From Escherichia phage 121Q: a stretch of 64,000 nt of DNA. The stretch lies in the sequence record NC_025447.1; one strand, 5' to 3'. A program made the position numbers and the translations under genes. Each line of letters starts with the position of its first letter. The first letter of the stretch is position 1. The notes beneath the pieces were generated by a model. The model ran no database searches, was not told the origin of the DNA, and saw nothing but the letters and a program-made list of their open reading frames with translations. Below, piece by piece: positions 3,023 to 61,644 of this stretch.

Positions 3023-5183
<2,161 letters not shown>

Positions 5184-5184
<1 letters not shown>

Positions 5185-5975
5185 TGCCAAGTAAAAGTAA
5201 AAGTCAAGCCAAATTCTTTGCCGCAGCAGCACATAATCCAGAATTTGCAAAAAAAGCTGGAATTTCCCAAAGTGCAGCGAAAGAGTGGAATGCCGCTGAT
5301 GAAAAGGAAGGTAATCTTAAAAAAAGTTCTAAACTTCCTAATAAAGTAAAAGAAGCAAGTATGCGTAGTTTAGTTGATATTGTTCAAGATGCAGAATTAG
5401 CTGATACTGAAGACCGAACTTGTGATATAATGGATTCTTGTGAAGACGATAAAGATAAATTGAATGAAATGCCACAACGTTTCGATAGTTTTCAAGGTCA
5501 AAATAGAGATGAGTTTGTTGATAAAACTGCTGAAATGACTGGTAAACACAATATGGTTAAGTTCGCTGAACACAAAGATTATGATGTGTATATGAATAAA
5601 AATGGTACTGGTTTTATTGCTTACGATAAGGCTGGTAAACAGCTTGCTATCGTCAGTGGGCATTTATCTAATGATGCAGTACTTGGAGTTCAAAACGTCT
5701 TCGAGATTGCTGCTACTGCCTCTAAAACAGGCACTAAAGGTATAATTTATAATATCTTTATGGATATGGTATCACATGGTATTAAAGTGCTTAGTGATAG
5801 TCTTCATACTGATGATGCAATTAAATTCTGGACCCGTTTAATTGGTTCACACCAAGTTTATATTGTTGGTGGTGGTGAAGTTCTTGCTAAGGCGAGTCCA
5901 GATAAAGTTCATAAGTACTGGAGTGATGATGAATCAAGTCCGAGTGCTGAACTTCAACTTATGTTAGTAAAATAA
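5184..5975 (+). CDS. hypothetical protein
   Basis: 263-aa ORF, ATGA overlap with upstream gene. Confidence 0.6.
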
Positions 5976-6074
5976 TAATATATCGGGACAAATCGTTCCG
6001 ATATTTTTTTTTGAGACAAACAAAACATTGGTGATACAATGTTTTATGACAAAGAGACATGATAAGGAATTCAA

Positions 6075-8039: not shown

Positions 8040-8050
8040 TATAGACTAAT

Positions 8051-8073
8051 GGGGAACATGGTGTTCCCCTTTT
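8051..8073 (+). terminator. intrinsic terminator
   Basis: GGGGAACATGGTGTTCCCC hairpin followed by TTTT. Confidence 0.6.
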
Positions 8074-8089
8074 ACCAAGAGACAATGGA

Positions 8090-9502
8090 ATGGCTAAAAG
8101 TAAAAAAACAGAAAATCATAATATCGATAACCAAACACTAACTCTACTAGATTATAACAGTTCTGATTATGTGAATACAACATCACTAGAATATTCGATG
8201 TATACACTAGACCGTGCTATTCCTGGAATTGATGGTCTAAAGAGTTCACAACGTAAAGCAATCTTCACATTATCTAAAATTAGTGGGGAAATTAAAACAG
8301 TATCATGTGCTGGAAAAATGATTAGTGATGGAATCTATCTTCATGGGGACACGTCAGCATCTGGAACACTTCAGAATCTAGCATCTCCAGTAGCCAACAA
8401 CTATCCTCTTATTGGAAAACGTGGTGGTTTTGGTACACAAGTAAACAGCACCCCAGCATCTGCTCGTTACACTTATGTTAAAAAGAATAAGAGTACTGAA
8501 ATGCTCGTTTTACGTGATGCTGACATTATCCCAATGAAAGAGAACTATGACGGGACCACATTTGAACCTGTTCACTTTTTACCTATTATCCCACTGTCAT
8601 TATTTGGTAATGATAGTATGTCAGTAGGGTATAAGAGTACAATTCTACCACATAAAATTGAAGATATTATTGATAATTGTATTCGTGCTATTGATAAAAA
8701 ACCACTAAAAGAAATGACACCATATTATGTATCATGTGGGGCAAGTGATGTAGTAACAAAACTAGATGAAAATAAGTATGAGTTTTATGGTAAAGCTGAA
8801 GTAATCGATGCAAGTACGGTTAAGGTGACAGGTTTACCACCTAATTATAGTATTGAGAAATTCATCGAAAAACTCATTAAAATGAGTGATGATGGTGAGA
8901 TTCGTGACTATGACAATGACAGTACTGATGTAATTGATATCACCATTAAACTTCCTCGTGGTACATCAGCTAAATGGTCAGAAATGGATGTTATTGAGTA
9001 TTTTGGTATTAACAAAAAAATGACTCAACATTTAACGGTTCTTGGAGAAAATGGTAAAGTAAAAGTTTACGATACAACAATGGATTTGATTAAAGACTTC
9101 GTTGATTTTCGTTTCAAGTATTACATCAAGCGTTATGAAAAGAAACTTGATGATTGTGCGGCTGAGGTTCGATACAAAATTCTAATCAAGGAATGCTTTG
9201 ATAATGATATGATTGCTAAGGTGAAAGGGTTTGCAAACCGTGCAGAAATGGTGGAATTTGTTAAATCATTAAATGCAGAAATTGAAGCAACTGACGAGAA
9301 TATTCAAAGCATTGTAAACTTCCCATCATATCGCTGGACACAAGATAATTATCAATCAGTACTACAAGATATTCAATATAATCTTGATTTGATGGATAAG
9401 TATAATGAACTATTATCTAATCATGACCTAATTTGGGACATTTATAAATCTGAACTTAAAGAACTAAGAAAGATTGATTTTACTCCTAAATCAGACAATT
9501 GA
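8090..9502 (+). CDS. 52: DNA topoisomerase II medium subunit (GyrA-like, gp52-type)
   Basis: DRAIPGIDGLKSSQRK resembles GyrA/ParC N-terminal breakage-reunion motif; sits directly downstream of the large subunit. Confidence 0.8.
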   Translation: MAKSKKTENHNIDNQTLTLLDYNSSDYVNTTSLEYSMYTLDRAIPGIDGLKSSQRKAIFTLSKISGEIKTVSCAGKMISDGIYLHGDTSASGTLQNLASPVANNYPLIGKRGGFGTQVNSTPASARYTYVKKNKSTEMLVLRDADIIPMKENYDGTTFEPVHFLPIIPLSLFGNDSMSVGYKSTILPHKIEDIIDNCIRAIDKKPLKEMTPYYVSCGASDVVTKLDENKYEFYGKAEVIDASTVKVTGLPPNYSIEKFIEKLIKMSDDGEIRDYDNDSTDVIDITIKLPRGTSAKWSEMDVIEYFGINKKMTQHLTVLGENGKVKVYDTTMDLIKDFVDFRFKYYIKRYEKKLDDCAAEVRYKILIKECFDNDMIAKVKGFANRAEMVEFVKSLNAEIEATDENIQSIVNFPSYRWTQDNYQSVLQDIQYNLDLMDKYNELLSNHDLIWDIYKSELKELRKIDFTPKSDN

Positions 9503-9512
9503 TATATTTTAT

Positions 9513-9544
9513 GGAAGACCTTACTGGGTCTTCCTTGTCCTTTA
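9513..9544 (+). terminator. putative terminator
   Basis: GGAAGACC..GGTCTTCC inverted repeat, weak U tract. Confidence 0.45.
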
Positions 9545-9590
9545 TATAAATAATCTATAGATAATGGCAGCTTGGCTATGGAGAATTATA

Positions 9591-11984
9591 ATGACAACTT
9601 TTACCCCACGTTGGGATATAAAAGCCGATGCTCGATATATACAAGAAGGACAAGACATTCTTGTGCGTTTGAGTATCAATAAAGAAAGCACAACGGATGA
9701 TAGCTATGTATTAAACGAAGATGAATACTTAGAGATGATTCTTAATATACAATGCTTGGATAGTTCAGGTGCTGTATTTGATCCAGAACCACATTATACT
9801 TTTTATGTTGGTAATGACGAAAATAGTTTTATTCCTATTTCAGATGGAACAACTGGTAATAAATTAGTAAATGGTAAGCATAAGTGTAAGATTAGCAAAA
9901 CAGAATTTAACTTATCATCAAGTACTAATACTGAAGATGTTTATTTTATAAAAATTCATTGTAAAAATGACGGAACATATAATAATACTGAAAATATAAA
10001 TTTTTATTTACAAGCAGTAAATGTTATGTATTTTGGGAATATTTCACCAAGTGGAGTTTTAGGATTAACAGATACTTCAATAACATATGATAGTCAGGAA
10101 GTTTGGGTTACACCTGGAGTTGAGATTGGTGATGACAAAAAACTTTATTGTATTGGTGATGTTGAGTATGGTTCAAACAGTACATTGTTTGTTCAAGGGT
10201 TTGGGAGAAGAAGACCTTTTATACTCGGTACTGACATGACTACCGATATTACCCCTCGTGTATTCTTTCCTGCATATCGTTTGATTGACATGGATATATC
10301 TGAAGTTCCAGATAAACATATTACTAATGATTATGCCGTATTTAAACCAGCACAACCAACATGGCCTATTTCTGGCATAAACAAAGAAGTAAAAGTTAAT
10401 ATTCAAAATAGAAATGGTAATTTAATTGATTCAGGTATGGTTTTTAACCCTAATGGACAATTACTACAAACATTTTTATATGATTCAGATGCGTGTGATG
10501 CATATTTCAAAGTTGAAATTGTTGATATATTAAGTACATACACAGAAGAAAGCGAAAGGTTTGCTATCAATCAAAGATATAAGGCATATCAAATGTGGGT
10601 TTGTCCTGAAGATATTGACACTATATATTCTATAGCTGACAAACCACTACCGAATCATTTATATCAATTAAAAGATAACGTTGTATATCCCTATGTGATT
10701 AGTGGTGAGTACGACAATGGGTCAATTAAACCAGTTTATGATAGTAGTGATTGGATTGATTTGGGATATTATGACTCTACTCTTGGTGATAATATCATTG
10801 GTATGCAGAAAATGTTCAGGGTTTTGATTAACGCTGAAGAAGGTAATAATATAAACTTTGTTACTGATAGTGATTTGGGAACTATACATGTTGGTGAATA
10901 TTTTGGAGACAGTACCTATCCTAGAATAGAAACTGATAGTTCAAATCAGGTTTCGTATGTTTTGGATGGTGGTGATGATATTAGGAAGTATGGAATAGAT
11001 TTGACACCTGACGGATATCTTGTTGGAACTGCATATGCCAAAAGTATTGACTTTAGTGAAAACGATGACATTAAACTATCGTTTTATGTTAAAGCATTTA
11101 GTACTGAAGGTGGCGAAGCAAGGAAAATATTTAACCTTAAGATTGTAAGAGGGTTCGGTCAGAATTATTTGAGTGCACATGTACTACCGTCTGTTGCATT
11201 TGAGCGAGAGTGGTTTAAATGTATCAGTACTTCATCATTTACTAATCAACTTTTTTTCCGTCAATCTGATAATAGGTATGGTCTTCAGAAAGTTCCTAGG
11301 ATGTTATTGAAAGAAAACTTTCTAAGTCAAACGTACCCATATACTAATCTTTCGGATATCAAAAAAGTATTACGAAATAGTATCATTAATCCAAATGGCT
11401 CTACTATACCAAATGGAAAATTTAAAATGGTAATGGGTAATTATAAATTGATATCAGCACTTGACAATCAAGGCAATTTGCAATATGATTTATTATATAG
11501 AGAAGTTTTACCTGAAGGTTCTTTAGTATCTGTATCCAAAAATCCTCGTATGTATACTCAAATAGATAATGGTCAGCTTGGTGAACTGTTTGGTCTACGT
11601 CAAAATATCTTTCAAGCTATTGGTGAAGACACAACAAACTTGGTAAAAGATCCAACTGATTTACAAAATCGTGGTCTATACGTTGATGCTATACCAAGTA
11701 TCAGCGATGAAATGCTTGATACCGTTCCAAGATTTATGAATCACCCATACATTGAAGATGGTATACAGAAAAAATTCATGCCTATTATCCCAGTCGCATT
11801 TTGTCAGCCAGGTAAAGGTGAAGCATTTTTCAACACTTTACTTCAGAATAATGAACATGGTACAATGGTAGGTCTAGAGTTTGAAATCACATCTGTCGAA
11901 TTTGGGTACTTTTCACATGAATCAGTAAATTATGTACCAGATACATTTGTGATTACATTGCAAAACAATAACATAGGAGGTTAA
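9591..11984 (+). CDS. large hypothetical protein
   Basis: About 800-aa ORF; start placed at second ATG 9591 with GGAG-like RBS (track ORF 9564); no recognised motif. Confidence 0.6.
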   Translation: MTTFTPRWDIKADARYIQEGQDILVRLSINKESTTDDSYVLNEDEYLEMILNIQCLDSSGAVFDPEPHYTFYVGNDENSFIPISDGTTGNKLVNGKHKCKISKTEFNLSSSTNTEDVYFIKIHCKNDGTYNNTENINFYLQAVNVMYFGNISPSGVLGLTDTSITYDSQEVWVTPGVEIGDDKKLYCIGDVEYGSNSTLFVQGFGRRRPFILGTDMTTDITPRVFFPAYRLIDMDISEVPDKHITNDYAVFKPAQPTWPISGINKEVKVNIQNRNGNLIDSGMVFNPNGQLLQTFLYDSDACDAYFKVEIVDILSTYTEESERFAINQRYKAYQMWVCPEDIDTIYSIADKPLPNHLYQLKDNVVYPYVISGEYDNGSIKPVYDSSDWIDLGYYDSTLGDNIIGMQKMFRVLINAEEGNNINFVTDSDLGTIHVGEYFGDSTYPRIETDSSNQVSYVLDGGDDIRKYGIDLTPDGYLVGTAYAKSIDFSENDDIKLSFYVKAFSTEGGEARKIFNLKIVRGFGQNYLSAHVLPSVAFEREWFKCISTSSFTNQLFFRQSDNRYGLQKVPRMLLKENFLSQTYPYTNLSDIKKVLRNSIINPNGSTIPNGKFKMVMGNYKLISALDNQGNLQYDLLYREVLPEGSLVSVSKNPRMYTQIDNGQLGELFGLRQNIFQAIGEDTTNLVKDPTDLQNRGLYVDAIPSISDEMLDTVPRFMNHPYIEDGIQKKFMPIIPVAFCQPGKGEAFFNTLLQNNEHGTMVGLEFEITSVEFGYFSHESVNYVPDTFVITLQNNNIGG

Positions 11985-11985
11985 T

Positions 11986-12297
11986 ATGTTTAATCCGTTT
12001 TTTGACCCGTCTGGGATGACGGAGAAAGAACTACAGTTGAAAATTAATGAACAGTCAATGCGTATAACTTCAGCCCGTGCCGCTGGTATGAGTGATATGA
12101 TTATTGGTAATATGCAAACTGTGTTAAATCAATGTTATGCTGAACTAGAACTTCGTCAAGGACAAAAAGAAAAATCTGTTTATGATGAAGAAGACTCATG
12201 TATCTTCGACATGGATTCTTATCTAACTGACAATGAAGAGGCCCAGAAAAAGAAAAATGAAAGTACAAGGAAACAGATTTATAAGTCCCAATGGTGA
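11986..12297 (+). CDS. hypothetical protein
   Basis: 103-aa ORF starting 2 nt after upstream stop. Confidence 0.5.
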   Translation: MFNPFFDPSGMTEKELQLKINEQSMRITSARAAGMSDMIIGNMQTVLNQCYAELELRQGQKEKSVYDEEDSCIFDMDSYLTDNEEAQKKKNESTRKQIYKSQW

Positions 12298-12775
12298 TGT
12301 AAAATGTAATCTTAACGCAGTAGTTTATGCAATCAATTGCGGTGCGGATATCCAGTACTTACAATTGCAGGAAATTGATGAACCTGAAAGGTTGAAATTC
12401 AATGATAACTGTAAAAAATTTGGCTTAGAACAACGTATGCTGGATTATACTATCGAGCATGATAAAAATCATGAACTTTGGCGTTATGATCCAGTATACG
12501 ACAATATAAATCTACGTGACTTTTTCTTACAAAAATGTACATCAGATGAAGCACGAAAGCGTGTTGAGTATGAACTAGATTTATATGAATATTATAATAT
12601 GACAAAGCTATTAAGATGTATGATATGGCTTGTTGATTATATGGAAGAAAATGAGATCTTTTGGGGTCTAGGGCGTGGAAGCTCGGTTGCATCATACTGT
12701 TTGTTTTTGATTGGTCTACACATGGTAGATTCATTGAAATACGAACTCGATGTTAATGAATTTTTGAAATGGTAG
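12233..12775 (+). CDS. hypothetical protein
   Basis: ORF overlapping upstream gene; start ambiguous between 12233 and 12257. Confidence 0.5.
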   Translation: MKRPRKRKMKVQGNRFISPNGDVKCNLNAVVYAINCGADIQYLQLQEIDEPERLKFNDNCKKFGLEQRMLDYTIEHDKNHELWRYDPVYDNINLRDFFLQKCTSDEARKRVEYELDLYEYYNMTKLLRCMIWLVDYMEENEIFWGLGRGSSVASYCLFLIGLHMVDSLKYELDVNEFLKW

Positions 12776-12838
12776 CAAAACATGTGATATAATGTTTATT
12801 GTAGGCTTATATCACACATACAATAAAAGGATTTTGAT

Positions 12839-13183
12839 ATGTCTAAACATACAACTTATCGTGGTACAACAATTGACATGGATATGCTCAAGTACCAAAA
12901 TCAACATCAGGTAGCATTGGGTAATGCTAATCTAAACGCACGTGGTGATAAAATTGGTTCAGGTGGAACAATTATCAAAACTCGTGAAGAGTTGATACAA
13001 GAAAAAGAAAGAGAAATGCAAATTCCTGATTATATCCCTGAACACCAACTTCATAGTACTGAACATAGTTCTGAGGAAGTATGGGATGATGAAAGTTTTG
13101 AAGTTAAGCCCGAAGCACAAGAAGCTGAGGTTTCTGAAGAGAAGAAAGCCCCACGTCGAGCAAAAACTAAAGATCAGGAGTAA
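12839..13183 (+). CDS. hypothetical protein
   Basis: 114-aa ORF preceded by a TATAAT-containing promoter-like sequence. Confidence 0.5.
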   Translation: MSKHTTYRGTTIDMDMLKYQNQHQVALGNANLNARGDKIGSGGTIIKTREELIQEKEREMQIPDYIPEHQLHSTEHSSEEVWDDESFEVKPEAQEAEVSEEKKAPRRAKTKDQE

Positions 13184-13191
13184 TGTATTAA

Positions 13192-13518
13192 ATGTCTAAT
13201 AAAGTAATGACTGCATGTAAAGGTAAAGTACTAGTCACTGAACTGGAACATGGTGAACGCAAAACAGCAGGTGGAATCGTTTTAACAAACGATGACGGTA
13301 AAATTAGAGGTATTCGTTCTCGCTGGGCTAAAGTATATTCAGTAGGCGAAGACATTACTGATATTAAAGAAGGTCAATGGATTTTAATTGATCATGGTCG
13401 TTGGTCAAGAACGATTGAGGTTGATGGTATTGAACTAAACCTAGTTGATTACCCTGCCGCTGTTAGTTTAGTATCTGATGAAGACCCACGCACTAAAATG
13501 CTAACCTTTGGACGTTGA
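13192..13518 (+). CDS. 31: GroES-family co-chaperonin (gp31-like)
   Basis: 108 aa; ERKTAGGIVLT and downstream GxxVxxVG / GD pattern typical of Cpn10/GroES. Confidence 0.85.
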   Translation: MSNKVMTACKGKVLVTELEHGERKTAGGIVLTNDDGKIRGIRSRWAKVYSVGEDITDIKEGQWILIDHGRWSRTIEVDGIELNLVDYPAAVSLVSDEDPRTKMLTFGR

Positions 13519-13531
13519 TAAAATATAATTA

Positions 13532-13558
13532 AAGCTCGGATTAATATCTGGGCTTTTT
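13532..13558 (+). terminator. putative terminator
   Basis: AGCTCGG..CTGGGCT stem with G-U pairs followed by TTTTTAT. Confidence 0.4.
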
Positions 13559-13574
13559 ATTTGGACACATTTTG

Positions 13575-13844
13575 ATGATAACGGATGATGGAAAATTTAG
13601 TTTCAAAGATGTAACATTAGTATCAAAAAACGGAAGATTCATGTTTGAAGATAGAAAAAATACAAAATATGTATATGAAGTTTCACATGATATGTTTAAA
13701 GTTTTATTAGTTGCATCGGCCCAAGCTGAAAGTACTGGGATTAAAAATAAGGCAAATTCTTTTAATTTTTTATTAAATCAATTGGAAATGACAGAAGAAC
13801 TTTTCACGGCTTTATTATATAATTCAGCCGATTGGATTCTATAA
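13575..13844 (+). CDS. hypothetical protein
   Basis: ORF; track start 13572 is TTG, first ATG at 13575. Confidence 0.45.
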   Translation: MITDDGKFSFKDVTLVSKNGRFMFEDRKNTKYVYEVSHDMFKVLLVASAQAESTGIKNKANSFNFLLNQLEMTEELFTALLYNSADWIL

Positions 13845-13867
13845 CACGTACACATAAGGAAATAAAA

Positions 13868-14821
13868 ATGACCACACTATGGACTGAAAAATATCGCCCA
13901 CAATCAATGGAAGATTATGTATCAAAAAATGATGCACTACGCCAGAAAATGGAAGAATGGATTAAAACTGGTGACATTCCACATATTGGGTTTTTTGGCC
14001 CAGCAGGAACTGGTAAAACATCTGCGATCAAAGTACTCATTAATGGATTGGTACAGAATGGACACCTTGACCCAAGTGATGTGACTACGCTTAACATGTC
14101 GGATGAGGGTATTGATGCAGTTCGTGATAAAATCGATGCCGCAGCAAAGCTATCATGTTTTGGTAGGTATCGTATCTTTGTTCTTGAAGAAATGGAGCAG
14201 ATGAACCATAAAGCACAAGGTAGTTTGAAACGTGTAATGGAAGACTATCATGAAAATGCTCGCTTTATTTTAACAAGTAACGAACCACATAAAATTCAAA
14301 AACCTATCATTTCTCGTGTTCAAGTTATTACAATCGAAAAGCATGATATGGAACAATTCATGACTCGAATTTATAATATTCTTCTAGCAGAAGGTGTTGA
14401 TTTGAGTAGTGATGATAGTGTTGAACAAGTTCAAAAGTATATCAATGCTTCCTATCCTGATTTCCGTAAAACACTAAACGTATTGCAAAGTTCAGTTGTT
14501 GATGGTAAGCTAGTAAAACTTGAAGATAGTATTGAAAATTCAGCAGGGTATCGTACTGCAATTGTTGAAGCATTAAAGGCAGGAAACATTCGCCAAATGC
14601 GTGAACAAATTGTACAAAATATCCCTGATGATGAGATGGATGCATTCTTTTCTTATCTGTATCGTAATGCTGAAATGTTCAGTACTGATGAAATTACTCT
14701 TATGAAAATCAAGGTTAAGATTCGTGATGCTGTTGTAAAACAAGCAACTGTATCTGACCGTGAAATGAATCTCAGTGCACTTCTGTGCGAGATTGACCTA
14801 ATTTGTTCGGGGAACATGTAA
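13868..14821 (+). CDS. RFC/gp44-like AAA+ clamp-loader ATPase
   Basis: WTEKYRP box, Walker A GPAGTGKTS, sensor-1-like ILTSN, ISRVQ (SRC-like); start placed at ATG 13868 after AAGGAAA RBS, giving 318 aa. Confidence 0.75.
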   Translation: MTTLWTEKYRPQSMEDYVSKNDALRQKMEEWIKTGDIPHIGFFGPAGTGKTSAIKVLINGLVQNGHLDPSDVTTLNMSDEGIDAVRDKIDAAAKLSCFGRYRIFVLEEMEQMNHKAQGSLKRVMEDYHENARFILTSNEPHKIQKPIISRVQVITIEKHDMEQFMTRIYNILLAEGVDLSSDDSVEQVQKYINASYPDFRKTLNVLQSSVVDGKLVKLEDSIENSAGYRTAIVEALKAGNIRQMREQIVQNIPDDEMDAFFSYLYRNAEMFSTDEITLMKIKVKIRDAVVKQATVSDREMNLSALLCEIDLICSGNM

Positions 14822-37835: not shown

Positions 37836-37985
37836 ATGAGTAATCAAAAAATCGACTTAGTAGTAAAACTTCAAGAGATTCAAGCACTAGCTAAAGACCT
37901 TGATAACACACGTGCATCAGTAGTTGATTCACTATGTGCAACAATCCTGACTGTTTTTACAGATTACGAAAAGAAATCTGATTAA
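37836..37985 (+). CDS. hypothetical small protein
   Basis: 49-aa ORF with AGGAG RBS. Confidence 0.35.
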   Translation: MSNQKIDLVVKLQEIQALAKDLDNTRASVVDSLCATILTVFTDYEKKSD

Positions 37986-38039
37986 ACGTTACTTTGTAAA
38001 TACCCAGTCAAGTACTGGGTATTTTTTTAAGGAAATAAA

Positions 38040-38432
38040 ATGACTGAATCAGAACTACACGAAATGATAGATTTCATTTATGAAATGGTGCAAGATAAAA
38101 ATAACATCAATACAATTACTACTGGACCAAGACAAATTGGTAACCAAATGACCTATTCGTTGTCTTTATGGTTACACCCGAACTTCAAGGTTGATTGTTT
38201 GTATTTCCGTCCTGATATTGATGCTTATTATTTTGTAAATCATGATGCATTAATGAAACCAAATAAGCGTACAGTTGATGATACCTTTGTGACACACCCA
38301 TTTTACCTGGCTGATTCCGAAGAAGATGAGTTTCAAAAGAACACAACGTTAAACCTAGGTGAAATTTGCATCCCTCACGAACTTAAAGATAAAATGAATC
38401 ACATCACAGAAGTTATGAAAACATGCTTGTAA
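38040..38432 (+). CDS. EE-x-FFQ-x-S motif family protein (member 11, divergent)
   Basis: EEDEFQKNTTLNLGEI. Confidence 0.5.
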   Translation: MTESELHEMIDFIYEMVQDKNNINTITTGPRQIGNQMTYSLSLWLHPNFKVDCLYFRPDIDAYYFVNHDALMKPNKRTVDDTFVTHPFYLADSEEDEFQKNTTLNLGEICIPHELKDKMNHITEVMKTCL

Positions 38433-38480
38433 GTGCAATGAATCTCTAGTATAATACTATGACTTTTTTAAGGAGAACAT

Positions 38481-39050
38481 ATGAACTTTATTAAATTCAA
38501 CACATCTGAGTTAGAAGCATACTTTAATACAAATAATAAATTCAATATTATTCTTAAAGACGGAACAACTGTTATCGGAGTATCATTGCTTTCATTTGAT
38601 GGCGAAAAACTCAAAACTGTTTATAAATTCACCAATCTTGATGGTGATTACTGGGATACATCAGATGTATCTAAAATTTGTACACATTATGTATTTGAAT
38701 CAATTGAAGTTGGTGATGGATGGGCATTGACCTGTAATGGTAATAAAGTATTTTCTGGTAACATATTTGGGGTAATTTCAAGTAAAGAAATCGTAGACCA
38801 TCATCTTCATGTTCTCAATAATAACGCCAACACTTATACACCTGATAATATCAAAATTCACGATATTGTAACATATACTGATTATAATGGTTTCAGTCAT
38901 AAAGCAATCGTAACTGAAGTTAAAAAACCAAAAAATTATTTCGACCACGGTTTAATTGAAGTATATATGGTAGGTGGCGACACACAATACTTTGAACATT
39001 TCACTTATACTGGTTGGGATAGATTTCTAACCGTTATTGAGGAATACTAA
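38481..39050 (+). CDS. hypothetical protein
   Basis: 189-aa ORF with AAGGAG RBS. Confidence 0.55.
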   Translation: MNFIKFNTSELEAYFNTNNKFNIILKDGTTVIGVSLLSFDGEKLKTVYKFTNLDGDYWDTSDVSKICTHYVFESIEVGDGWALTCNGNKVFSGNIFGVISSKEIVDHHLHVLNNNANTYTPDNIKIHDIVTYTDYNGFSHKAIVTEVKKPKNYFDHGLIEVYMVGGDTQYFEHFTYTGWDRFLTVIEEY

Positions 39051-41490: not shown

Positions 41491-41580
<90 letters not shown>

Positions 41581-41584
41581 ATAT

Positions 41585-41680
<96 letters not shown>

Positions 41681-41689
41681 CTAAAAACC

Positions 41690-41854
41690 ATGACGCATGA
41701 AGAATGGATGAATGATATTAATTTTAGATATTCGGGTATCGGTAGTTGGCGAAAATATCATTGGGAAATTATTTCAGACCCAGCAGAATACGATAAACTT
41801 ATAAACCATGAAGTATATCCGTGGTTCTTTATTGAAATAATGGTACGAATATGA
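41690..41854 (+). CDS. MTHEEW-family small protein
   Basis: MTHEEWMNDINFRYSGIGSW...; 54 aa. Confidence 0.5.
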   Translation: MTHEEWMNDINFRYSGIGSWRKYHWEIISDPAEYDKLINHEVYPWFFIEIMVRI

Positions 41855-42011
41855 CGCATGAAGAATGGATGAATGACATTAATTTTAGATATTCGGGTAT
41901 CGGTAAATGGCTAAAGTATCATTGGGAATTCATTTCAGAGCCACATATGTATGATAAACTTATCAACGATCCAGCATATGAAATGTACTTAATTGAACTA
42001 CTGGTACGAAT

Positions 42012-42015
<4 letters not shown>
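41851..42015 (+). CDS. MTHEEW-family small protein
   Basis: MTHEEWMNDINFRYSGIGKW...; near-duplicate of 41690 copy; ATGA overlap. Confidence 0.5.
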
Positions 42016-42177
<162 letters not shown>

Positions 42178-42185
42178 AAAAAAAG

Positions 42186-42595
<410 letters not shown>

Positions 42596-42599
<4 letters not shown>

Positions 42600-42630
42600 C
42601 TAAATAATTCAGTACTGAGGATATTAATAT
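42596..42630 (+). promoter_or_regulatory. degenerate copy of promoter cassette (copy 2)
   Basis: TTGACTAAATAATTCAGTACTGAGGATATTAATAT; -35 and spacer conserved, -10 degraded. Confidence 0.35.
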
Positions 42631-42656
42631 GTTTAAAGATGAACGTCCAGATTTGT

Positions 42657-42694
<38 letters not shown>

Positions 42695-42699
42695 GAATT

Positions 42700-43050
42700 C
42701 CACAATCAGACGTATATGGTGTAAGCTACGTCGATGCAATCCAGAACAAGATCTCTGGTACTCTAGGAAGTGGTGAATGTTAACCTAGACGGGTTTGATA
42801 ATTGGACGATAGGCAATTATTACTTGACTAGCAGGTTGAAACTAGAGGTGACAGTCCTTCACCAAACTGGAAAACCGGATGGACTTTTATTTAAAAGGGT
42901 AAGGCGTGGAAATATGTTTACAGAAGTTGCTTTTAGTAGCCTGTACGCCCCACGACAAGGTAGCCGAAAGGTAAGTTAAAACGGGTGGTTATAAAGCTGA
43001 ATTAACAGCGGCGTTTAAAAGCGTCACCATCCATTTTTTTAATTAAAGTT
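42700..43050 (+). ncRNA. candidate structured non-coding RNA downstream of early promoter
   Basis: About 350 nt between a consensus promoter and the next RBS with no convincing ORF, locally GC-richer, several hairpins including GGTGACAGTCCTTCACC and a GAAA-loop stem. Confidence 0.3.
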
Positions 43051-43056
43051 GGCGAT

Positions 43057-43809
<753 letters not shown>

Positions 43810-43826
43810 TTCACATGATATAGGGA

Positions 43827-44088
<262 letters not shown>

Positions 44089-44096
44089 GAATCTTC

Positions 44097-44498
44097 ATGA
44101 AAAAGAATGACTTGATCAAAATGCTCCAAGAGATTGACGGCAATCCAGAGATTGTTATTTGGAATGGCTATGTCGATGATTATATGAACATCGAAAAAGG
44201 CTTGACTAAAATCACACTAGTCAAAGAAACTGAACAGTTCCTTCTGAACGCATTAGAGCATGAATGGTGCGAACGTAACAAGACATTCGACATTCCAGAA
44301 GACCAACGAACTAAGATTGCAGAACGTGCTAAAGAACTTCATAAGAAGCGTGAATACGATTTCCAGAACCCATATGTTACTGAAGAAGAATTCAATCGCT
44401 GGTACGGAAAAAGAAAGTTGACAAAGTATGTTCTTTCACCTAAACTACGTGGTAAGACTTCTCTTGGTGTATTCAATGCATCTGACTTAGATTACTAA
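44097..44498 (+). CDS. hypothetical protein (paralog pair with 45138..45353)
   Basis: N-terminus MKKNDLIKMLQEIDGNPEIVIW resembles MKAKDLISILQKNPEADILIH. Confidence 0.55.
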   Translation: MKKNDLIKMLQEIDGNPEIVIWNGYVDDYMNIEKGLTKITLVKETEQFLLNALEHEWCERNKTFDIPEDQRTKIAERAKELHKKREYDFQNPYVTEEEFNRWYGKRKLTKYVLSPKLRGKTSLGVFNASDLDY

Positions 44499-44508
44499 GG
44501 AAAACAAA

Positions 44509-44829
44509 ATGATGTGGTATTCAAATGTACCGTGTGAACCTAAATATATTCAGATTTCACATAATGCACTGAAAGCGTTCTGTGATAATTGCAGTACTAA
44601 AGATTATCACTTCGAAGACTTCAGAACGTTGATTTATGACCATCACTGTCAGCCAGCAACCAAAGATGGTATGTTTGTAATTGAACAATTCTTTCATGGT
44701 AAGGTATTGCAAATTGTTGCTGATTATCTGAAAGCAATGGGATATATTATCAAAGATGATTATCTTGATTTAGAAGGTGAATGCATTGTTGATGGTTATG
44801 ATGGTGTACTGATGAATTGGACATGGTGA
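44509..44829 (+). CDS. hypothetical protein
   Basis: 106-aa ORF. Confidence 0.5.
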   Translation: MMWYSNVPCEPKYIQISHNALKAFCDNCSTKDYHFEDFRTLIYDHHCQPATKDGMFVIEQFFHGKVLQIVADYLKAMGYIIKDDYLDLEGECIVDGYDGVLMNWTW

Positions 44830-44833
44830 TGAA

Positions 44834-45136
44834 ATGATTGCAACAATGATGATTGTACTTATCCCAATAGTACTAGTAATTCTAGTGACTTCATATGGTG
44901 CAACCACAACTATTGAAGATCTAAAAACACATTACGCTATCGTCTTTAGTGAAGCACATGAAGACTTTGGTACAGTACTGACCGATAAGACTTATATTGC
45001 AACTAAATGTAAGTACTACCGATTCTGGGAACGTTCTGACAAATACCACTACAGAGATGAGAAAGGCGTGAATCAGTACTTAGACGTACTGGATGCATTC
45101 TTGAAACCTTACTATACAGTAACCGAGGTAAAATAA
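44834..45136 (+). CDS. hypothetical membrane-anchored protein
   Basis: N-terminal TM MIATMMIVLIPIVLVILV. Confidence 0.5.
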   Translation: MIATMMIVLIPIVLVILVTSYGATTTIEDLKTHYAIVFSEAHEDFGTVLTDKTYIATKCKYYRFWERSDKYHYRDEKGVNQYLDVLDAFLKPYYTVTEVK

Positions 45137-45137
45137 C

Positions 45138-45353
45138 GTGAAAGCTAAAGATTTGATTTCAATTTTACAGAAAAACCCAGAAGCAGATATTCTTATTCAT
45201 GCTTCGCCTTATGATGACTATGCGATTGGTAGTTGCGAAACTGCTCATTCATATCAAGCAGGGGACACCGCTGTTGAAGAGTCTGGTGAAGATTTTTCGG
45301 AATCATTTGATGAAGATGGAAAACTCTTAGTACCAGTCATCATTCTCTCATAA
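45138..45353 (+). CDS. hypothetical protein (paralog pair with 44097..44498)
   Basis: GTG start in track; N-terminal similarity to 44097 ORF. Confidence 0.45.
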   Translation: MKAKDLISILQKNPEADILIHASPYDDYAIGSCETAHSYQAGDTAVEESGEDFSESFDEDGKLLVPVIILS

Positions 45354-45360
45354 AAGAACG

Positions 45361-45543
<183 letters not shown>

Positions 45544-45562
45544 AGAGGTACTTCGAGTATGC

Positions 45563-45629
<67 letters not shown>

Positions 45630-45632
45630 TAA

Positions 45633-45661
45633 TTGACATAACTTTGAATGGAGTGTATTAT
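45633..45661 (+). promoter_or_regulatory. sigma70-type promoter
   Basis: TTGACA, 17-nt spacer, TATTAT. Confidence 0.5.
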
Positions 45662-45704
45662 GTTCCAAGAAGAAAACTGGGGTTTTTAACATAACGGGGA
45701 ATGT

Positions 45705-45837
<133 letters not shown>

Positions 45838-45838
45838 G

Positions 45839-45889
<51 letters not shown>

Positions 45890-45895
45890 TAATTA

Positions 45896-45968
45896 GCCGA
45901 CTTAGCTCAGTAGGTAGAGCGTTCCTCTTGTAAGGGAAATGTCACCAGTTCAATTCCGGTAGTCGGCA
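45896..45968 (+). tRNA. tRNA-Thr (anticodon UGU)
   Basis: Perfect acceptor GCCGACT/AGTCGGC, D-arm GCTCAGTAGGTAGAGC, anticodon loop CTTGTAA, T-loop TTCAATT; CCA not encoded. Confidence 0.65.
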
Positions 45969-57266: not shown

Positions 57267-58232
57267 GTGAAAAAGCTTGATTTAAATACAATTGCCGAAG
57301 AAGTTCTGGATGAATGTTTTTCTAATGAAGAAGTCAACACACTAGAAGCCTTAGATTTCGTTGAAGATAAAGATGAAAATGAAGGTAAAGTACAAAGCAG
57401 TTTCAAATATAATATTACACTTAAGCGACCACCAAATGTTTCCAATGAAGATCTAATTCGTGATATTCAAGCTGGTATCAATGTAAAGAAAAACACTGAA
57501 CTGTTAGTTCGTTACAATTATGGACTTATTATTGATGTAGCAAGTAAATGTACTTGTTATATCCCATTTGAAGATAAGATTTCATATGGTGTTGAGGGGT
57601 TCATGAGAGCACTAAAAACCTTTGATCTTAATAAGAATGTGAAGTTCATTACCTATGCTTCTTCTAGTATTTACATGACAGTTTATAACGAAAGTTCTGA
57701 CGCTAACTATATGGTACACTTCCCACGTTATATGAGTGTTCATAAGATCAAAGTAAAAAGATTCTGTCAGGAATATATGCGTAAACATGGTGTTCGCCCA
57801 ACTCCTGAAATAATCTCAGAGGGTACTGGGATTGAGATTCAGCATGTTAATAACTGTTTGTTATTTCAAAGCGAATACACTTCTCTGGATGCACCATTAG
57901 ACGGTGTTACCGATGGTACACTAGGTGACATTATTCATTCACCTGCTTCTGATTTTAACCTCAATGTTGATAGTATTCGTGCACCTTTACGTTATGCTAT
58001 CAATGAACTGACTAACGAATTGAGTACTAAAGAACGTGAGATTATCCAGCGTGTTCATGGTCTAGGTGAATATGAACCTGAAACGCTTCGTGAGATTGCT
58101 GATAATGGTTTTGTTGATGATAATGGAAAATATGTTAAATCCCGTTCATCAATACATCGAAAGTACAGTGAAGCTATGCAAAAGCTTAAGAAGCTAGTAC
58201 TTGCAAAAGGGTACGAATACGAAGATTTCTAA
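57267..58232 (+). CDS. sigma-70 family RNA polymerase sigma factor (regions 2 and 4)
   Basis: Region 2-like LVRYNYGLIIDVASK...GVEGFMRALKTFD...KFITYASSSIYMTV; region 4 HTH-like EREIIQRVHGL...ETLREIADNGF...SRSSIHRKYSEAMQKLKK; GTG start after AGGAG. Confidence 0.7.
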   Translation: MKKLDLNTIAEEVLDECFSNEEVNTLEALDFVEDKDENEGKVQSSFKYNITLKRPPNVSNEDLIRDIQAGINVKKNTELLVRYNYGLIIDVASKCTCYIPFEDKISYGVEGFMRALKTFDLNKNVKFITYASSSIYMTVYNESSDANYMVHFPRYMSVHKIKVKRFCQEYMRKHGVRPTPEIISEGTGIEIQHVNNCLLFQSEYTSLDAPLDGVTDGTLGDIIHSPASDFNLNVDSIRAPLRYAINELTNELSTKEREIIQRVHGLGEYEPETLREIADNGFVDDNGKYVKSRSSIHRKYSEAMQKLKKLVLAKGYEYEDF

Positions 58233-58240
58233 AGAAAAAA

Positions 58241-58265
58241 GGTTGGCTTATGCCAACCTTTTTTT
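58241..58265 (+). terminator. intrinsic terminator
   Basis: GGTTGGCTTATGCCAACC hairpin followed by T7 run. Confidence 0.65.
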
Positions 58266-58269
58266 ATGG

Positions 58270-58790
58270 GATGAAGTAAAAGTTTGTGATATAATTATCT
58301 TGTACAATTCTGTTGGCATGATATTCATGTACCTGATCCACTCGAAAACGTAGAGGGCAGTTGAGCAGTCCGACAGTGCGAACAGCAAAAGAAACCCGTT
58401 AGATGTGGGCATAGTTTGAACCCCTCACGGCAATGCGGCTGTATAAAGAACCACGTTAGGATAGCTGGTGGTTCCTTGATAGACATATAAGGATAACACC
58501 TTACGAATTATCTAAGGGAGAGTTATCAAATTTTGTACAGGAAAGTTGCGTCCAGAATTTGAGTACTCACATTAAGTATTTGATTGCATAGATACTTAAT
58601 GAAGATACACTATGTTTAAAAGTGTAGACCGTCATATGAAACTGAAGTAGAGAGAAACAGGATGACCCGCTTTCGCACTCGTTATGAGTAATCTTCAATG
58701 CAATAGCTCTGATACCATCAGCGTCAAATTTCCCTCCTTGTGGGGGGAAGAAAAATCCCTTCCTCAAATCCCGTCAATATTAAAAGTCCT
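58270..58790 (+). other. GC-richer non-coding region (candidate structured RNA or gene remnant)
   Basis: About 520 nt without a convincing ORF between terminator and next promoter; visibly higher GC than flanks. Confidence 0.3.
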
Positions 58791-58818
58791 TGACAGTTAT
58801 TAATCATTCGCGTAGAAT
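58790..58818 (+). promoter_or_regulatory. sigma70-type promoter
   Basis: TTGACA, 17-nt spacer, TAGAAT. Confidence 0.5.
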
Positions 58819-58882
58819 ACGTAGTATTAGAAGCGAACAGACATCTCGAAGAGATGGATGATTAACCATTAAGGAATATCCA

Positions 58883-59092
58883 ATGAATTCAGTAATCTTT
58901 TTAGTAGTCGCTTTCTCTGTTAATTCCGGTATACAAATAACCCCAATGAATTCCATGAATCAATGCATAGCAGTACGTGATAGTACATACGAACAAGTAA
59001 ACAAAGATATTTGGATTACAGTTAATAAAGAACAAATGTGGTGTTACAATAGTAATACTAACACAAAGCTTATTGTAGGACAAACTCAATGA
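58883..59092 (+). CDS. hypothetical small protein with N-terminal hydrophobic segment
   Basis: 69-aa ORF with AAGGAA RBS. Confidence 0.5.
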   Translation: MNSVIFLVVAFSVNSGIQITPMNSMNQCIAVRDSTYEQVNKDIWITVNKEQMWCYNSNTNTKLIVGQTQ

Positions 59093-59319: not shown

Positions 59320-60108
59320 ATGAGCACTATCGATGAACTGATTCAACGGAATTCAAAATATTACCAACCATCAGAAATTGTGGATAACATTACTAAATCT
59401 GAGTTTGGACCGAACACACGCAAACTCATTCATGTAATGTCACGTGATGGCTTTAAATGTGATTGTTGTGGTGAATCAAATGTAGTATTCACTTTACACA
59501 AGCACAGTACTAAAGAACGTTATAAATTCAGACCTTATGTACTTAAAGGGAAACGCCTTGTACGCATGACGTTAGACCATAATGTACTGGACTGTCTTCA
59601 GGGCGGTAATGATAAAGAGAACATGACTGCATTGTGTGAAGATTGTAACGCATTACGCCAGCATAAGTTTGCTGAGTACAGTGAGTTTAAACACTGGTAT
59701 CATAACGCGGATCGTTCAATCGAGCCTGACGTTAACTACTGCTTCATTGAGTACATTAAGAATGCCAAAGATACATACATTCTTAAATCAATGTCACCTA
59801 TTACCGTGTTTCCTGAGAACCTATTCACTACATTAAAGAATAGTTTTATTGTCGGTGATATTGATGCATTCAAGTATTTTGACAAAGGTGCAAAACATTT
59901 TGAAATTCAATGTCTTAGTACTGCACTATGTAAACTCATTAAAATTTACATAAAAGAGTATTTGGGTATTGACAATGTACGTGTACCAGAGTATACTTTT
60001 TCTATTGAATTCGATTGTGAATCAATTAAAGAGTTTGGAATTCTTTTCAATAAACAAATAGAACTTGCAATTCAAAACGAAATCAAGTACTATACTACTA
60101 ACATTTAA
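59320..60108 (+). CDS. HNH endonuclease (free-standing, homing-endonuclease-like)
   Basis: CDCCGESN ... MTLDHNVLDCLQGGNDKENMTALCEDCNALRQH: Cys pairs plus H-N-H catalytic pattern. Confidence 0.75.
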   Translation: MSTIDELIQRNSKYYQPSEIVDNITKSEFGPNTRKLIHVMSRDGFKCDCCGESNVVFTLHKHSTKERYKFRPYVLKGKRLVRMTLDHNVLDCLQGGNDKENMTALCEDCNALRQHKFAEYSEFKHWYHNADRSIEPDVNYCFIEYIKNAKDTYILKSMSPITVFPENLFTTLKNSFIVGDIDAFKYFDKGAKHFEIQCLSTALCKLIKIYIKEYLGIDNVRVPEYTFSIEFDCESIKEFGILFNKQIELAIQNEIKYYTTNI

Positions 60109-60991: not shown

Positions 60992-61084
60992 GTTTATATC
61001 AAAGGGAATGCAGTGAAAGGAAAGACAGCATAATCGTACTCGTCACTGCGTTCCCGCCCTTTTAAATTAAATGAGGAATTAACT

Positions 61085-61393
61085 ATGTTTCAAACTAACA
61101 CTCAAGGTTTTGTAATCATCGATTTGAATCAAAACAGCGGTTATTGGATGAAACCTACTGACGCATGTATGCAGTTTGATTTCTTAGGTTACAGAATTAG
61201 TGTAAGTACTGGTGCTTCTGTACTGAGAGGTGGTTGTATCGTTGAACATCTGGTAACTGATCCAGAAGGTCGTGAGTATGAAATCGCAGGTTCAGTACAA
61301 GATGCCATTATGTTTGTATGTCAGCGTGAAATGAATGGTTCGAACTCAAATGCACTGACTCATGCTCTTTCTCAAGAAGTGGAGGTTCGTTAA
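61085..61393 (+). CDS. hypothetical protein
   Basis: 102-aa ORF with GAGGAA RBS. Confidence 0.55.
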   Translation: MFQTNTQGFVIIDLNQNSGYWMKPTDACMQFDFLGYRISVSTGASVLRGGCIVEHLVTDPEGREYEIAGSVQDAIMFVCQREMNGSNSNALTHALSQEVEVR

Positions 61394-61644
61394 TGAAATA
61401 CATTGTAGCAGTACTCGTCGCATTTTTACTCACTGCATGTGATGCTTCAACCAAAGAACGCACAAGTGATTTTGAACTCCCTACTGAATTAAAAGAAGCA
61501 GGATGTAAGATTTATCGTATGCAACAGGAAGGTGCTGGTGCAACGTTGTATACAGTTTATTGTCCTAATGCAAACACCAGTACTGGATACACTAGCGGAA
61601 AAACACGAATCAACACTTCAGTGATTAATGGAGTACAACAATGA
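61393..61644 (+). CDS. putative lipoprotein
   Basis: MKYIVAVLVAFLLTAC: signal peptide with lipobox L-T-A-C. Confidence 0.6.
   Translation: MKYIVAVLVAFLLTACDASTKERTSDFELPTELKEAGCKIYRMQQEGAGATLYTVYCPNANTSTGYTSGKTRINTSVINGVQQ

Follow-up and report, generated by a model that had tools for sequence, protein, structure and literature searches.

A putative new family of large, pseudoknotted non-coding RNAs in jumbo phages and bacterial chromosomal islands

Escherichia phage 121Q is an Asteriusvirus jumbo phage, and the 64,000-nucleotide (nt) stretch of its genome analysed here (sequence record NC_025447.1; hereafter the window) is about 99.7% identical to phages G17, Sharanji and PBECO4 across the query. 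At positions 58302–58780 of the window, downstream of a sigma-factor gene, lies a stand-alone gene on the + strand for a non-coding RNA of about 480 nt that belongs to a new family. The explanation that we consider, with fair probability, to be the right one adds that this RNA acts in trans as a folded particle. The substitution patterns among its homologues show that the genes of this family encode a folded RNA whose complex tertiary architecture is under strong purifying selection. Asteriusvirus genomes have four old paralogues, the copy in the window among them, and related jumbo phages carry up to five. To our knowledge, classes of large and highly structured bacterial or phage RNA are very few, namely RNase P RNA, transfer-messenger RNA (tmRNA), group I and group II introns, OLE, GOLLD, ROOL and raiA, each of which has opened new biochemistry; the RNA described here apparently represents a further, undescribed class.

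The fold was modelled from mutual information with manual assembly of the helices, and the pairing counts refer to a MAFFT alignment (A1) of 35 non-redundant copies. The resulting two-domain model contains 22 counted helices, four of them pseudoknots (PKs), each formed by a hairpin loop that pairs with a distant strand. Over the 118 pairs of the model, 92.3% of the cells are paired, compared with 39–41% when the 3′ partners are slid by 1–3 columns; double-sided changes occur in 77 of the 118 pairs (643 cells), against 30–35 pairs after sliding; and the covariation score is 0.456 versus 0.06–0.09 for slid and 0.169 for shuffled alignments, with none of 500 shuffles reaching the observed values. 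Pairs ranking highest in mutual information are 97–100% Watson–Crick. Since G·U cells outnumber A·C cells four-fold at the modelled pairs (7.7% versus 1.8%), the + strand is the folded strand, and the compensatory changes, the long-range pseudoknots and this excess together demand a folded single strand. A structured RNA was one of several explanations offered for the region in the initial annotation, and it is the one that covariation in the 22 helices strongly supports. With about 90 unique sequences and four pseudoknots in the family, the comparative support is unusually strong. Against the family profile the window copy reaches 466.6 bits (nhmmer, E = 1e-140), and it forms 123 of 124 modelled base pairs, arranged as follows.

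58302..58780, + strand: non-coding RNA core, about 480 nt, copy A of the four Asteriusvirus paralogues.
58310..58513, + strand: 5′ domain, comprising P1 to P8, PK-A and PK-B.
58310–16 / 58370–76, + strand: P1, a pseudoknot with the P1.1 loop; one of the helices with 82–99% of cells paired and many double changes.
58365–67 / 58377–79, + strand: P1.1, 100% paired.
58317–21 / 58325–29, + strand: P2, outside the per-helix counts.
58333–43 / 58353–60, + strand: P3, with the invariant loop GAAAAYGUA; 82–99% class, many double changes.
58382–86 / 58438–42, + strand: P4, 100% paired.
58396–99 / 58427–30, + strand: P5a, 100% paired.
58407–09 / 58422–24, + strand: P5b, weaker, 72% paired.
58433–35 / 58484–86, + strand: PK-A, a further crossing helix, 100% paired.
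58448–54 / 58468–74, + strand: P7; 82–99% class, many double changes.
58459–63 (P7 loop) with 58509–13, + strand: PK-B; 82–99% class, many double changes.
58488–92 / 58499–503, + strand: P8; 82–99% class, many double changes.
58520..58704, + strand: 3′ domain, comprising P9 to P15, PK-C, PK-D and the invariant GACCGU.
58520–23 / 58565–68 and 58528–35 / 58553–60, + strand: P9 and P9a, the latter bearing the swappable GUAC...CCGUC module.
58570–81 / 58590–601, + strand: P10, double changes in 11 of 12 pairs.
58583–89 (P10 loop) with 58698–704, + strand: PK-C, 99.6% paired, double changes in all seven of its seven pairs.
58606–11 / 58621–26, + strand: P11, 3′ domain.
58631–35 with 58662–66 (in the P14 loop), + strand: PK-D, 100% paired.
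58643–47 / 58693–97, + strand: P13, 100% paired.
58650–54 / 58670–74, + strand: P14, 100% paired.
58677–80 / 58686–89, + strand: P15, 3′ domain.

The family alignment also holds about 110 invariant columns, most of them unpaired and situated in junctions and loops. They include the motifs GAAAAYGUA, UGAG, GCA.A..A.ACC.G, CGGC.A, GAUAGA, UAAGGGA, GACCGU, UAG..AGAAAC.G and ACCCGCUU.C; the invariant columns, with the core motifs GAUAGA, UAAGGGA, GACCGU, AGAAAC and ACCCGCUU among them, are present in the window copy. Other parts of the RNA are exchanged as units. A module of about 30 nt, AAUUUU-GUAC-AAnAnAG-AUCCGUC-AAAAUU, sits in P9 in most copies, while others have it in the P15 loop or in both places (columns 310–380 and 510–550 of alignment A1), and the P5b region (columns 133–190) exists in a short form, a long form (GUAC..GCAGUC..GACAUAAGAC) or not at all.

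Homologues are widespread among jumbo phages. Matches to the 466-nt core occur in 60 phage records, a number that a second query, taken from a diverged paralogue, raised to 68. The carriers include Serratia phage BF and the Erwinia pEa_SNUABM phages (Eneladusvirus), Pectobacterium phage CBB and Cronobacter phage GAP32 (Mimasvirus), Salmonella Munch-like phages, and Yersinia, Xanthomonas and Erwinia jumbo phages; Klebsiella phage K64-1, of the RaK2 group, has a divergent full-length copy (154.8 bits). Identity of the core in other phage genera is about 66–72%. Matching places number 1–5 per jumbo-phage record (3–5 in most, 1–2 in a few distant records), and the copies on any one jumbo contig all share a strand. 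Many more loci came from pattern scans of IMG/VR, GTDB genomes and metagenomes, after which a profile search returned 145 matches, of which 92 are unique and full-length, representing 67 sequences at less than 95% identity. Every Asteriusvirus record found has the locus, with its paralogues at conserved positions. Examination of 298 of the 348 kb of PBECO4, a near-identical phage (about 99.8%), revealed four full-length, diverged copies on one strand, each in a gap of 600–840 bp.

PBECO4 195038–195504: copy A, the counterpart of the window copy.
PBECO4 93655–94126: copy B.
PBECO4 37969–38504: copy C.
PBECO4 304928–305391: copy D, antisense to the flanking baseplate-hub and endonuclease VII genes.

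The position of copy D is syntenic in Salmonella phage Munch. Three to five old paralogues per genome are unusual for a large phage RNA. No further copy was found inside the 64-kb window, and no linked protein gene emerged: the proteins encoded downstream of four copies were aligned and are unrelated to one another, and the first sizeable open reading frames (ORFs) downstream of the compared copies are related neither to each other nor to the HNH-annotated ORF that follows the window copy. In most matching phage records nothing is annotated under the RNA match. Several deposited genomes have 3–5 ‘hypothetical protein’ coding sequences laid over the RNA gene, which is probably over-annotation (OR699182, OR699282, PQ330092, PP886230 and ON568341 are among such records), and a covariance model of the family would correct the annotation at about 250 loci. 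In phage UE-S1 a ‘repeat_region’ is annotated over the 5′ part of the RNA gene. A clustered regularly interspaced short palindromic repeat (CRISPR) array, as this label might imply, was rejected: a self-comparison of 58200–58900 contained no regular direct repeats, only the inverted repeat of the sigma-gene terminator and short chance matches.

Transcription probably begins from a promoter of the gene's own, of the extended −10 type, with a predicted start at about 58302–58304.

58267..58295, + strand: RNA gene promoter; −35-like TGGGAT at 58267–58272, extended −10 TGATATAAT at 58287–58295.

Nearly every copy has TGnTATAAT about 10–60 nt upstream of the first helix. Together with an upstream TGGGAY, TGGAAC or TGAAAC box at an equal distance, it occurs in 15 of 16 representative copies (TGTCCTATAAT in L053), among them the K64-1 copy (GAACA box) and an Escherichia coli chromosomal copy (TGGGAT box); one island copy (L142) has a weaker −10, TATACT. 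A second promoter class described for phages CBB and GAP32 is enriched upstream of DNA-synthesis genes (PMC5259590). Because the upstream box of the RNA promoter resembles this class, the RNA is probably a middle-phase transcript. Orthologues of the B type (L004 at 44140–44190, L043 and L039) have a covarying terminator-like hairpin and T-run between the −10 element and the first helix, which would be a promoter-proximal terminator.

Beyond the two domains the RNA continues into a tail with a pair of direct motifs of the form A-Y-C-N-CGUCA-R.

58709..58780, + strand: 3′ tail, comprising P16, motif 1, P17 and motif 2.
58711–15 / 58721–25, + strand: P16, a weak hairpin after P15 and PK-C.
58717–58727, + strand: motif 1, AUCAGCGUCAA.
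58730–37 / 58742–49, + strand: P17, a GC hairpin flanked by motifs 1 and 2.
58768–58777, + strand: motif 2, AUCCCGUCAA.

The two motifs covary by identity rather than by complementarity. Across 89 unique copies, position Y is TT in 69 and CC in 20, with no discordant case, and position R is GG in 49, AA in 36 and GA in 4; loop and flank positions of the motifs covary in the same way. Both motifs read CUUCA in the K64-1 copy, and the variants of CGUCA differ between paralogues of one genome. No Watson–Crick partner of the CGUCA motifs was found within 58300–58782 or as an aligned RNA column. Such identity covariation possibly reflects a switch, processing sites, or a requirement of copying or recombination. 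Most other copies have a terminator-like hairpin and U-run between the motifs; several copies, that of the window included, lack this internal terminator hairpin. The tail also contains an invariant GGGG within a G-run beside a C/U-rich run.

Direct motifs of this kind would suit a repeat that works at the level of DNA, such as a recombination site, a protein-binding array or a packaging signal, whose transcript has no role; the copies are multiple and co-oriented, and identity-covarying direct motifs are expected of the crossover cores of site-specific recombination. The double-sided changes in 77 pairs, the long-range pseudoknots and the strand-specific G·U excess speak against a repeat of this sort, as does the conserved promoter upstream of nearly every copy, and we regard it as highly improbable.

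Conservation extends further, into a module between motif 2 and the next operon.

58790..58856, + strand: conserved downstream module of promoter, stem-loop and hairpin.
58790–58818, + strand: sigma-70 promoter TTGACA-17-TAGAAT (promoter scan).
58807–11 / 58833–37, + strand: downstream stem-loop, its loop holding ACGUAGU (58819–25).
58842–47 / 58851–56, + strand: downstream hairpin, after the stem-loop.

In most copies inspected by eye, bacterial ones included, a stem-loop with the loop ACG[A/U]AGUGA, followed by a hairpin/promoter, lies 40–90 nt past motif 2 (the E. coli copy L109 is ambiguous), and the hairpin overlaps a promoter of the form TTGACn-17-TAnAAT or TGGAAC...TGTATAAT. The module may be the real 3′ part of the RNA or a shared regulatory cassette that serves the next operon; because conservation continues downstream, the 3′ end given here is a prediction.

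The RNA is not confined to phages. Intact copies reside in at least 12 bacterial island loci, on enterobacterial chromosomes, and no match was found in plasmids. Among 5,426 complete E. coli genomes, two contain an intact copy, which scores 448.8 bits, has the promoter, the two domains and the tail, and is only about 81% identical to the nearest phage copy. The layout of the E. coli island was read from strain LR-29-1 (NZ_AP027515.1; L109), the second carrier locus being EEC_W5. The LR-29-1 island, of about 10.7 kb (3850–14640 of the locus) between ffs and ybaA, encodes a tyrosine integrase split by IS3, an mSLOG-DUF4326 / DUF488 / DuOB trio and a serine invertase, and contains the RNA (7888–8556) and another 700 nt or so that are non-coding. 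At least 11 more loci were found in GTDB genomes and metagenomes, Silvania hatchlandensis among them (L112, L123, L124, L128, L130, L137, L141, L142, L144, L153 and L154). Their common order is a large serine recombinase, variable ORFs, the RNA, a convergent CI-like S24/helix-turn-helix (HTH) repressor, a Cro-like HTH gene, a conserved 286-amino-acid (aa) ORF, LprI, an invertase and cargo, the last being, for example, DarT with an ADP-ribosylglycohydrolase (DarTG-like) or KwaB (Kiwa). No structural or replication genes were recognised in the islands, which look like an uncharacterised type of satellite or defence island. Island RNAs are closest (81–84% identity) to a particular paralogue of some jumbo phages; homologues of the island proteins were found neither in the 298 kb of PBECO4 nor in the other jumbo-phage loci compared. 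The position of the RNA as a core element beside the CI/Cro switch of islands with DarTG, Kiwa and further anti-phage cargo ties a structured RNA to the interplay of phages with satellites or with phage defence, and we know of no other RNA of this size with such a link.

We favour a particle acting in trans on the grounds that invariant junctions, pseudoknots and swappable peripheral modules typify RNAs with a precise three-dimensional core; taken on its own, this action in trans as a stable folded particle is held tentatively, with a confidence somewhat short of even. The RNA would be a scaffold, a ribozyme core or a decoy that binds a conserved partner through its invariant unpaired motifs (GAAAAYGUA, AUGAG, GAUAGA, UAAGGGA, GACCGU, AGAAAC and ACCCGCUU). 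Its transcription would start at the TGAAAC-box promoters of the phage, which putatively form a middle class, in the phase of DNA synthesis, with each paralogue keeping private pseudoknot sequences, and islands that carry a copy beside their CI/Cro switch would plug into, or jam, the same phage process. The proposal is directly testable, because the carriers, jumbo phages of E. coli, Salmonella, Klebsiella, Erwinia and Serratia in development for therapy, can be cultured.

Several points weigh against this proposal. Folding of the single sequence gives a z-score of only −1.28 for each strand, and because the folding energy is thus unremarkable the case for structure rests on comparative evidence. 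Conservation runs past the internal terminator-like hairpin, unlike in a simple terminated small RNA (sRNA), and as there is no terminator before the next promoter the window copy could be a long leader. No transcriptome of a carrier phage was found in the literature, and the 5′ and 3′ ends are predictions. Finally, satellites usually need cis-acting elements and not trans-acting helper functions.

This last consideration favours the main rival, a replication origin. The RNA would then be a cis-acting, structured pre-primer, comparable to ColE1 RNA II or to the transcripts of T4 oriF/oriG, and an R-loop near its G-rich 3′ tail would prime leading-strand synthesis by a T4-type replisome; the 3–5 copies would be multiple origins of a 350-kb genome, and islands would carry a copy so as to be amplified, and perhaps transduced, on infection by a jumbo phage. 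ColE1 RNA II is a pre-primer of about 550 nt that has a dedicated promoter and must fold correctly, and T4 has several dispersed origins that are fired from middle promoters, where its origin transcripts start. The RNA shares with these transcripts its non-coding nature and its dedicated promoter, here putatively of the middle class as well. Its copies are dispersed on one strand (at 38, 94, 195 and 305 kb in PBECO4), the GGGG of the 3′ tail is invariant within its G-run beside a C/U-rich run, and islands without recognisable replication genes retain the RNA as a conserved core element. The promoter class is the one reported upstream of DNA-synthesis genes in CBB (PMC5259590). The known origin transcripts have neither multi-pseudoknot cores nor large invariant sets, however, and about 110 invariant nt with four covarying pseudoknots far exceed what they need. 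Moreover, no conserved unwinding element or set of iterons common to all copies of a genome is obvious, the CGUCA variants are copy-specific, and no copy coincides with a switch in GC skew, although the last result is weak evidence because skew here follows gene orientation and transcription. On balance we consider an origin unlikely.

In a broader version, Rak2-type jumbo phages would have the RNA as the cis heart of their RNA-primed origins or of some other step that requires it in cis, SOS-inducible defence islands would have pirated it for amplification and mobilisation by the infecting phage, and its CGUCA motifs would mark the RNA-to-DNA transition or processing sites; this is speculative and in our view also rather unlikely. 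If true, it would make a new and ornate RNA class a shared ‘currency’ of giant phages and of the islands that exploit or fight them. A new ribozyme class or a self-assembling RNA particle may be equally novel alternatives.

The internal hairpin raises the further question of a cis-acting transcriptional device, a leader that modifies or instructs its own polymerase either by processive antitermination, as the put RNA of HK022 does, or as a sensor with an expression platform, and so controls read-through of the internal terminator into the downstream genes, into the baseplate genes in antisense (copy D) or into the island CI repressor. In keeping with such a device, most copies have the terminator-like hairpin and U-run inside the element with conservation continuing beyond it, the gene that follows copy D, and likewise that following the island copies, is convergent with the RNA across a gap of 130–380 nt, and the duplicated CGUCA motifs could be alternative partners of the 5′ strand of P16. 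However, known antitermination RNAs and riboswitches are several times smaller, the downstream genes are unrelated between copies, the hairpin is missing from several copies including that of the window, and alternative pairing does not explain the identity covariation at loop and flank positions of the motifs. We therefore judge a transcriptional device improbable.

Comparison with known RNAs returned no relative. On nine copies no family of Rfam 15 matched at E ≤ 5–10 apart from terminator-like sRNA noise, so the check for known structured RNAs or introns proposed with the initial annotation came back empty. No match was obtained to the models of RNase P RNA, tmRNA, 6S RNA and signal recognition particle RNA, and ARAGORN found no transfer RNA (tRNA) or tmRNA at the locus. 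GOLLD (RF01998) and ROOL (RF03087) gave nothing in the window at the gathering score, on the region at E ≤ 10 or on eight other copies at E ≤ 5. Candidates considered and rejected include a group I intron (RF00028), which has no model match, the element lying between a terminator and a promoter with its own promoter and with one paralogue antisense to its neighbours; a group II intron (RF00029 and domain models), with no model match and no conserved ORF; and HEARO / IscB omega RNA (RF02033), with no model match, the downstream 262-aa ORF lacking a Pfam domain at E ≤ 0.01. Likenesses to CR-IV/CR-V of RNase P (ACAG..ACCCGCUU versus CR-V), to the rrn boxA and to a Shine–Dalgarno mimic (UAAGGGA) had no model support and were dropped.

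The immunity switch of mobile elements offers a parallel. The CI immunity RNA of satellite P4 (cited in PMC7567579) and the OOP antisense RNA of lambda, of about 70 nt, act by simple antisense pairing, and in P4 a single RNA segment pairs with each of two repeated sites, seqA and seqC. Here, too, an RNA gene stands beside the immunity switch of a mobile element, and seqA/seqC recall motifs 1 and 2; the difference is that no complementary partner of the CGUCA motifs was found. The nearest analogues, though only in kind, are GOLLD and ROOL and the RNAs of PA5oct and ICP1 described below. GOLLD and ROOL are reported to accumulate in lytic growth and to self-assemble as seen by cryo-electron microscopy (bioRxiv 10.1101/2024.12.08.627333; Harris & Breaker review cited in PMC7567579). 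Like these, the present RNA is phage-encoded and non-coding and spans hundreds of nucleotides with many helices and pseudoknots; unlike them it occurs in enterobacterial jumbo myoviruses as 3–5 diverged paralogues per genome, is not tied to tRNA genes and forms a core part of chromosomal CI/Cro islands.

RNA sequencing of jumbo phage PA5oct has revealed long non-coding RNAs (ncRNA001–004) from ORF-less regions of 236–619 nt, of which ncRNA002 (451 nt) accounts for about 5% of phage reads; neither a structure nor conservation outside phage MIJ3 is reported (PMC7318152). They resemble the RNA described here in coming from a related jumbo-phage clade, in lacking ORFs and in having no known function. 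At the level of sequence only, no similarity was detected at the loci of ncRNA001/002 (nhmmer --max, PA5oct 7.5–23.5 kb; best match anywhere in that stretch, E = 0.69). The lytic phage ICP1 and its PLE satellites, chromosomal islands that parasitise it, both make abundant non-coding RNAs, that of the satellite being suspected to be regulatory (PMC7567579). The present phages and islands likewise share putatively expressed non-coding RNA genes; the phage and satellite RNAs of ICP1 and PLE are not reported to be homologous, whereas here they are clear homologues (up to 84% identity). No description of the RNA family was found in literature searches on jumbo phages, their non-coding RNAs and satellites, or by sequence, nor in a term lookup in the CBB paper.

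The surroundings of the gene agree largely with what had been noted of them. A sliding-window check bore out the GC-rich island at 58270–58790, where the GC content of 0.399, as against 0.332 over the full 64 kb, ranks at the 99.1th percentile among 521-nt segments, and the flanking signals are as described, namely the terminator hairpin of the sigma gene on the left and on the right the promoter at 58790–58818, which a scan recovers with 11 of 12 matches. The conserved extent, about 58267 to about 58860, goes slightly beyond these coordinates. The sigma-70-family gene itself (57267–58232) has regions 2, 3 and 4 (Pfam).

58229..58266, + strand: rho-independent terminator of the sigma-factor gene, outside the RNA and forming its left boundary; hairpin AAAAAAGGTTGGC-TTAT-GCCAACCTTTTTTT.

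This hairpin, with approximate limits, was read in the sequence; it is annotated as a terminator in phage G17 and aligns with the terminator parts of several sRNA models, and a simple terminator scan made no call. The absence of a credible ORF also held: the 66-aa minus-strand ORF (58567–58767) has no Pfam match, and no ORF is conserved across the 35 homologues, in which the longest stop-free stretch shifts in strand, frame and position and has a median of 72 aa versus 67 ± 18 aa for shuffles of the window copy. The HNH gene reported 0.5 kb downstream exists as an ORF (59320–60108, 262 aa) that is annotated as an HNH endonuclease in 121Q and PBECO4 and shows Cys pairs and a DH..N pattern; it has no Pfam match at E ≤ 0.01, and its proximity is coincidental, as it is not found beside other RNA copies, whose neighbours are unrelated.

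Raised GC, the lack of an ORF and this HNH-annotated neighbour had suggested a decayed gene or intron, or DNA recently acquired from a foreign source. Neither survives the comparison. No group I or group II model matches even at E ≤ 10, the element has its own promoter and interrupts no gene, its copies contain no frame-consistent ORF traces, and identity of about 70% across genera with compensatory changes indicates an RNA element under selection, not one in decay; foreign origin is not supported, since the locus occurs in every Asteriusvirus record found with paralogues at conserved positions. We attach almost no credence to a remnant or to recent acquisition, and the DNA-only, pseudogene, intron and foreign-DNA readings are excluded in practice. 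Within the RNA locus GC peaks at 0.455 (58300–58499), and values like these occur elsewhere in the window only at a tRNA cluster near 43.4 kb and in a stretch near 61 kb. The former lies in 41491–45968, where Rfam finds at least five tRNA genes, and coincides with the one other window region of higher GC than the RNA locus; the latter, 61000–61600, has a GC content of 0.40–0.42, among the highest values in the window.

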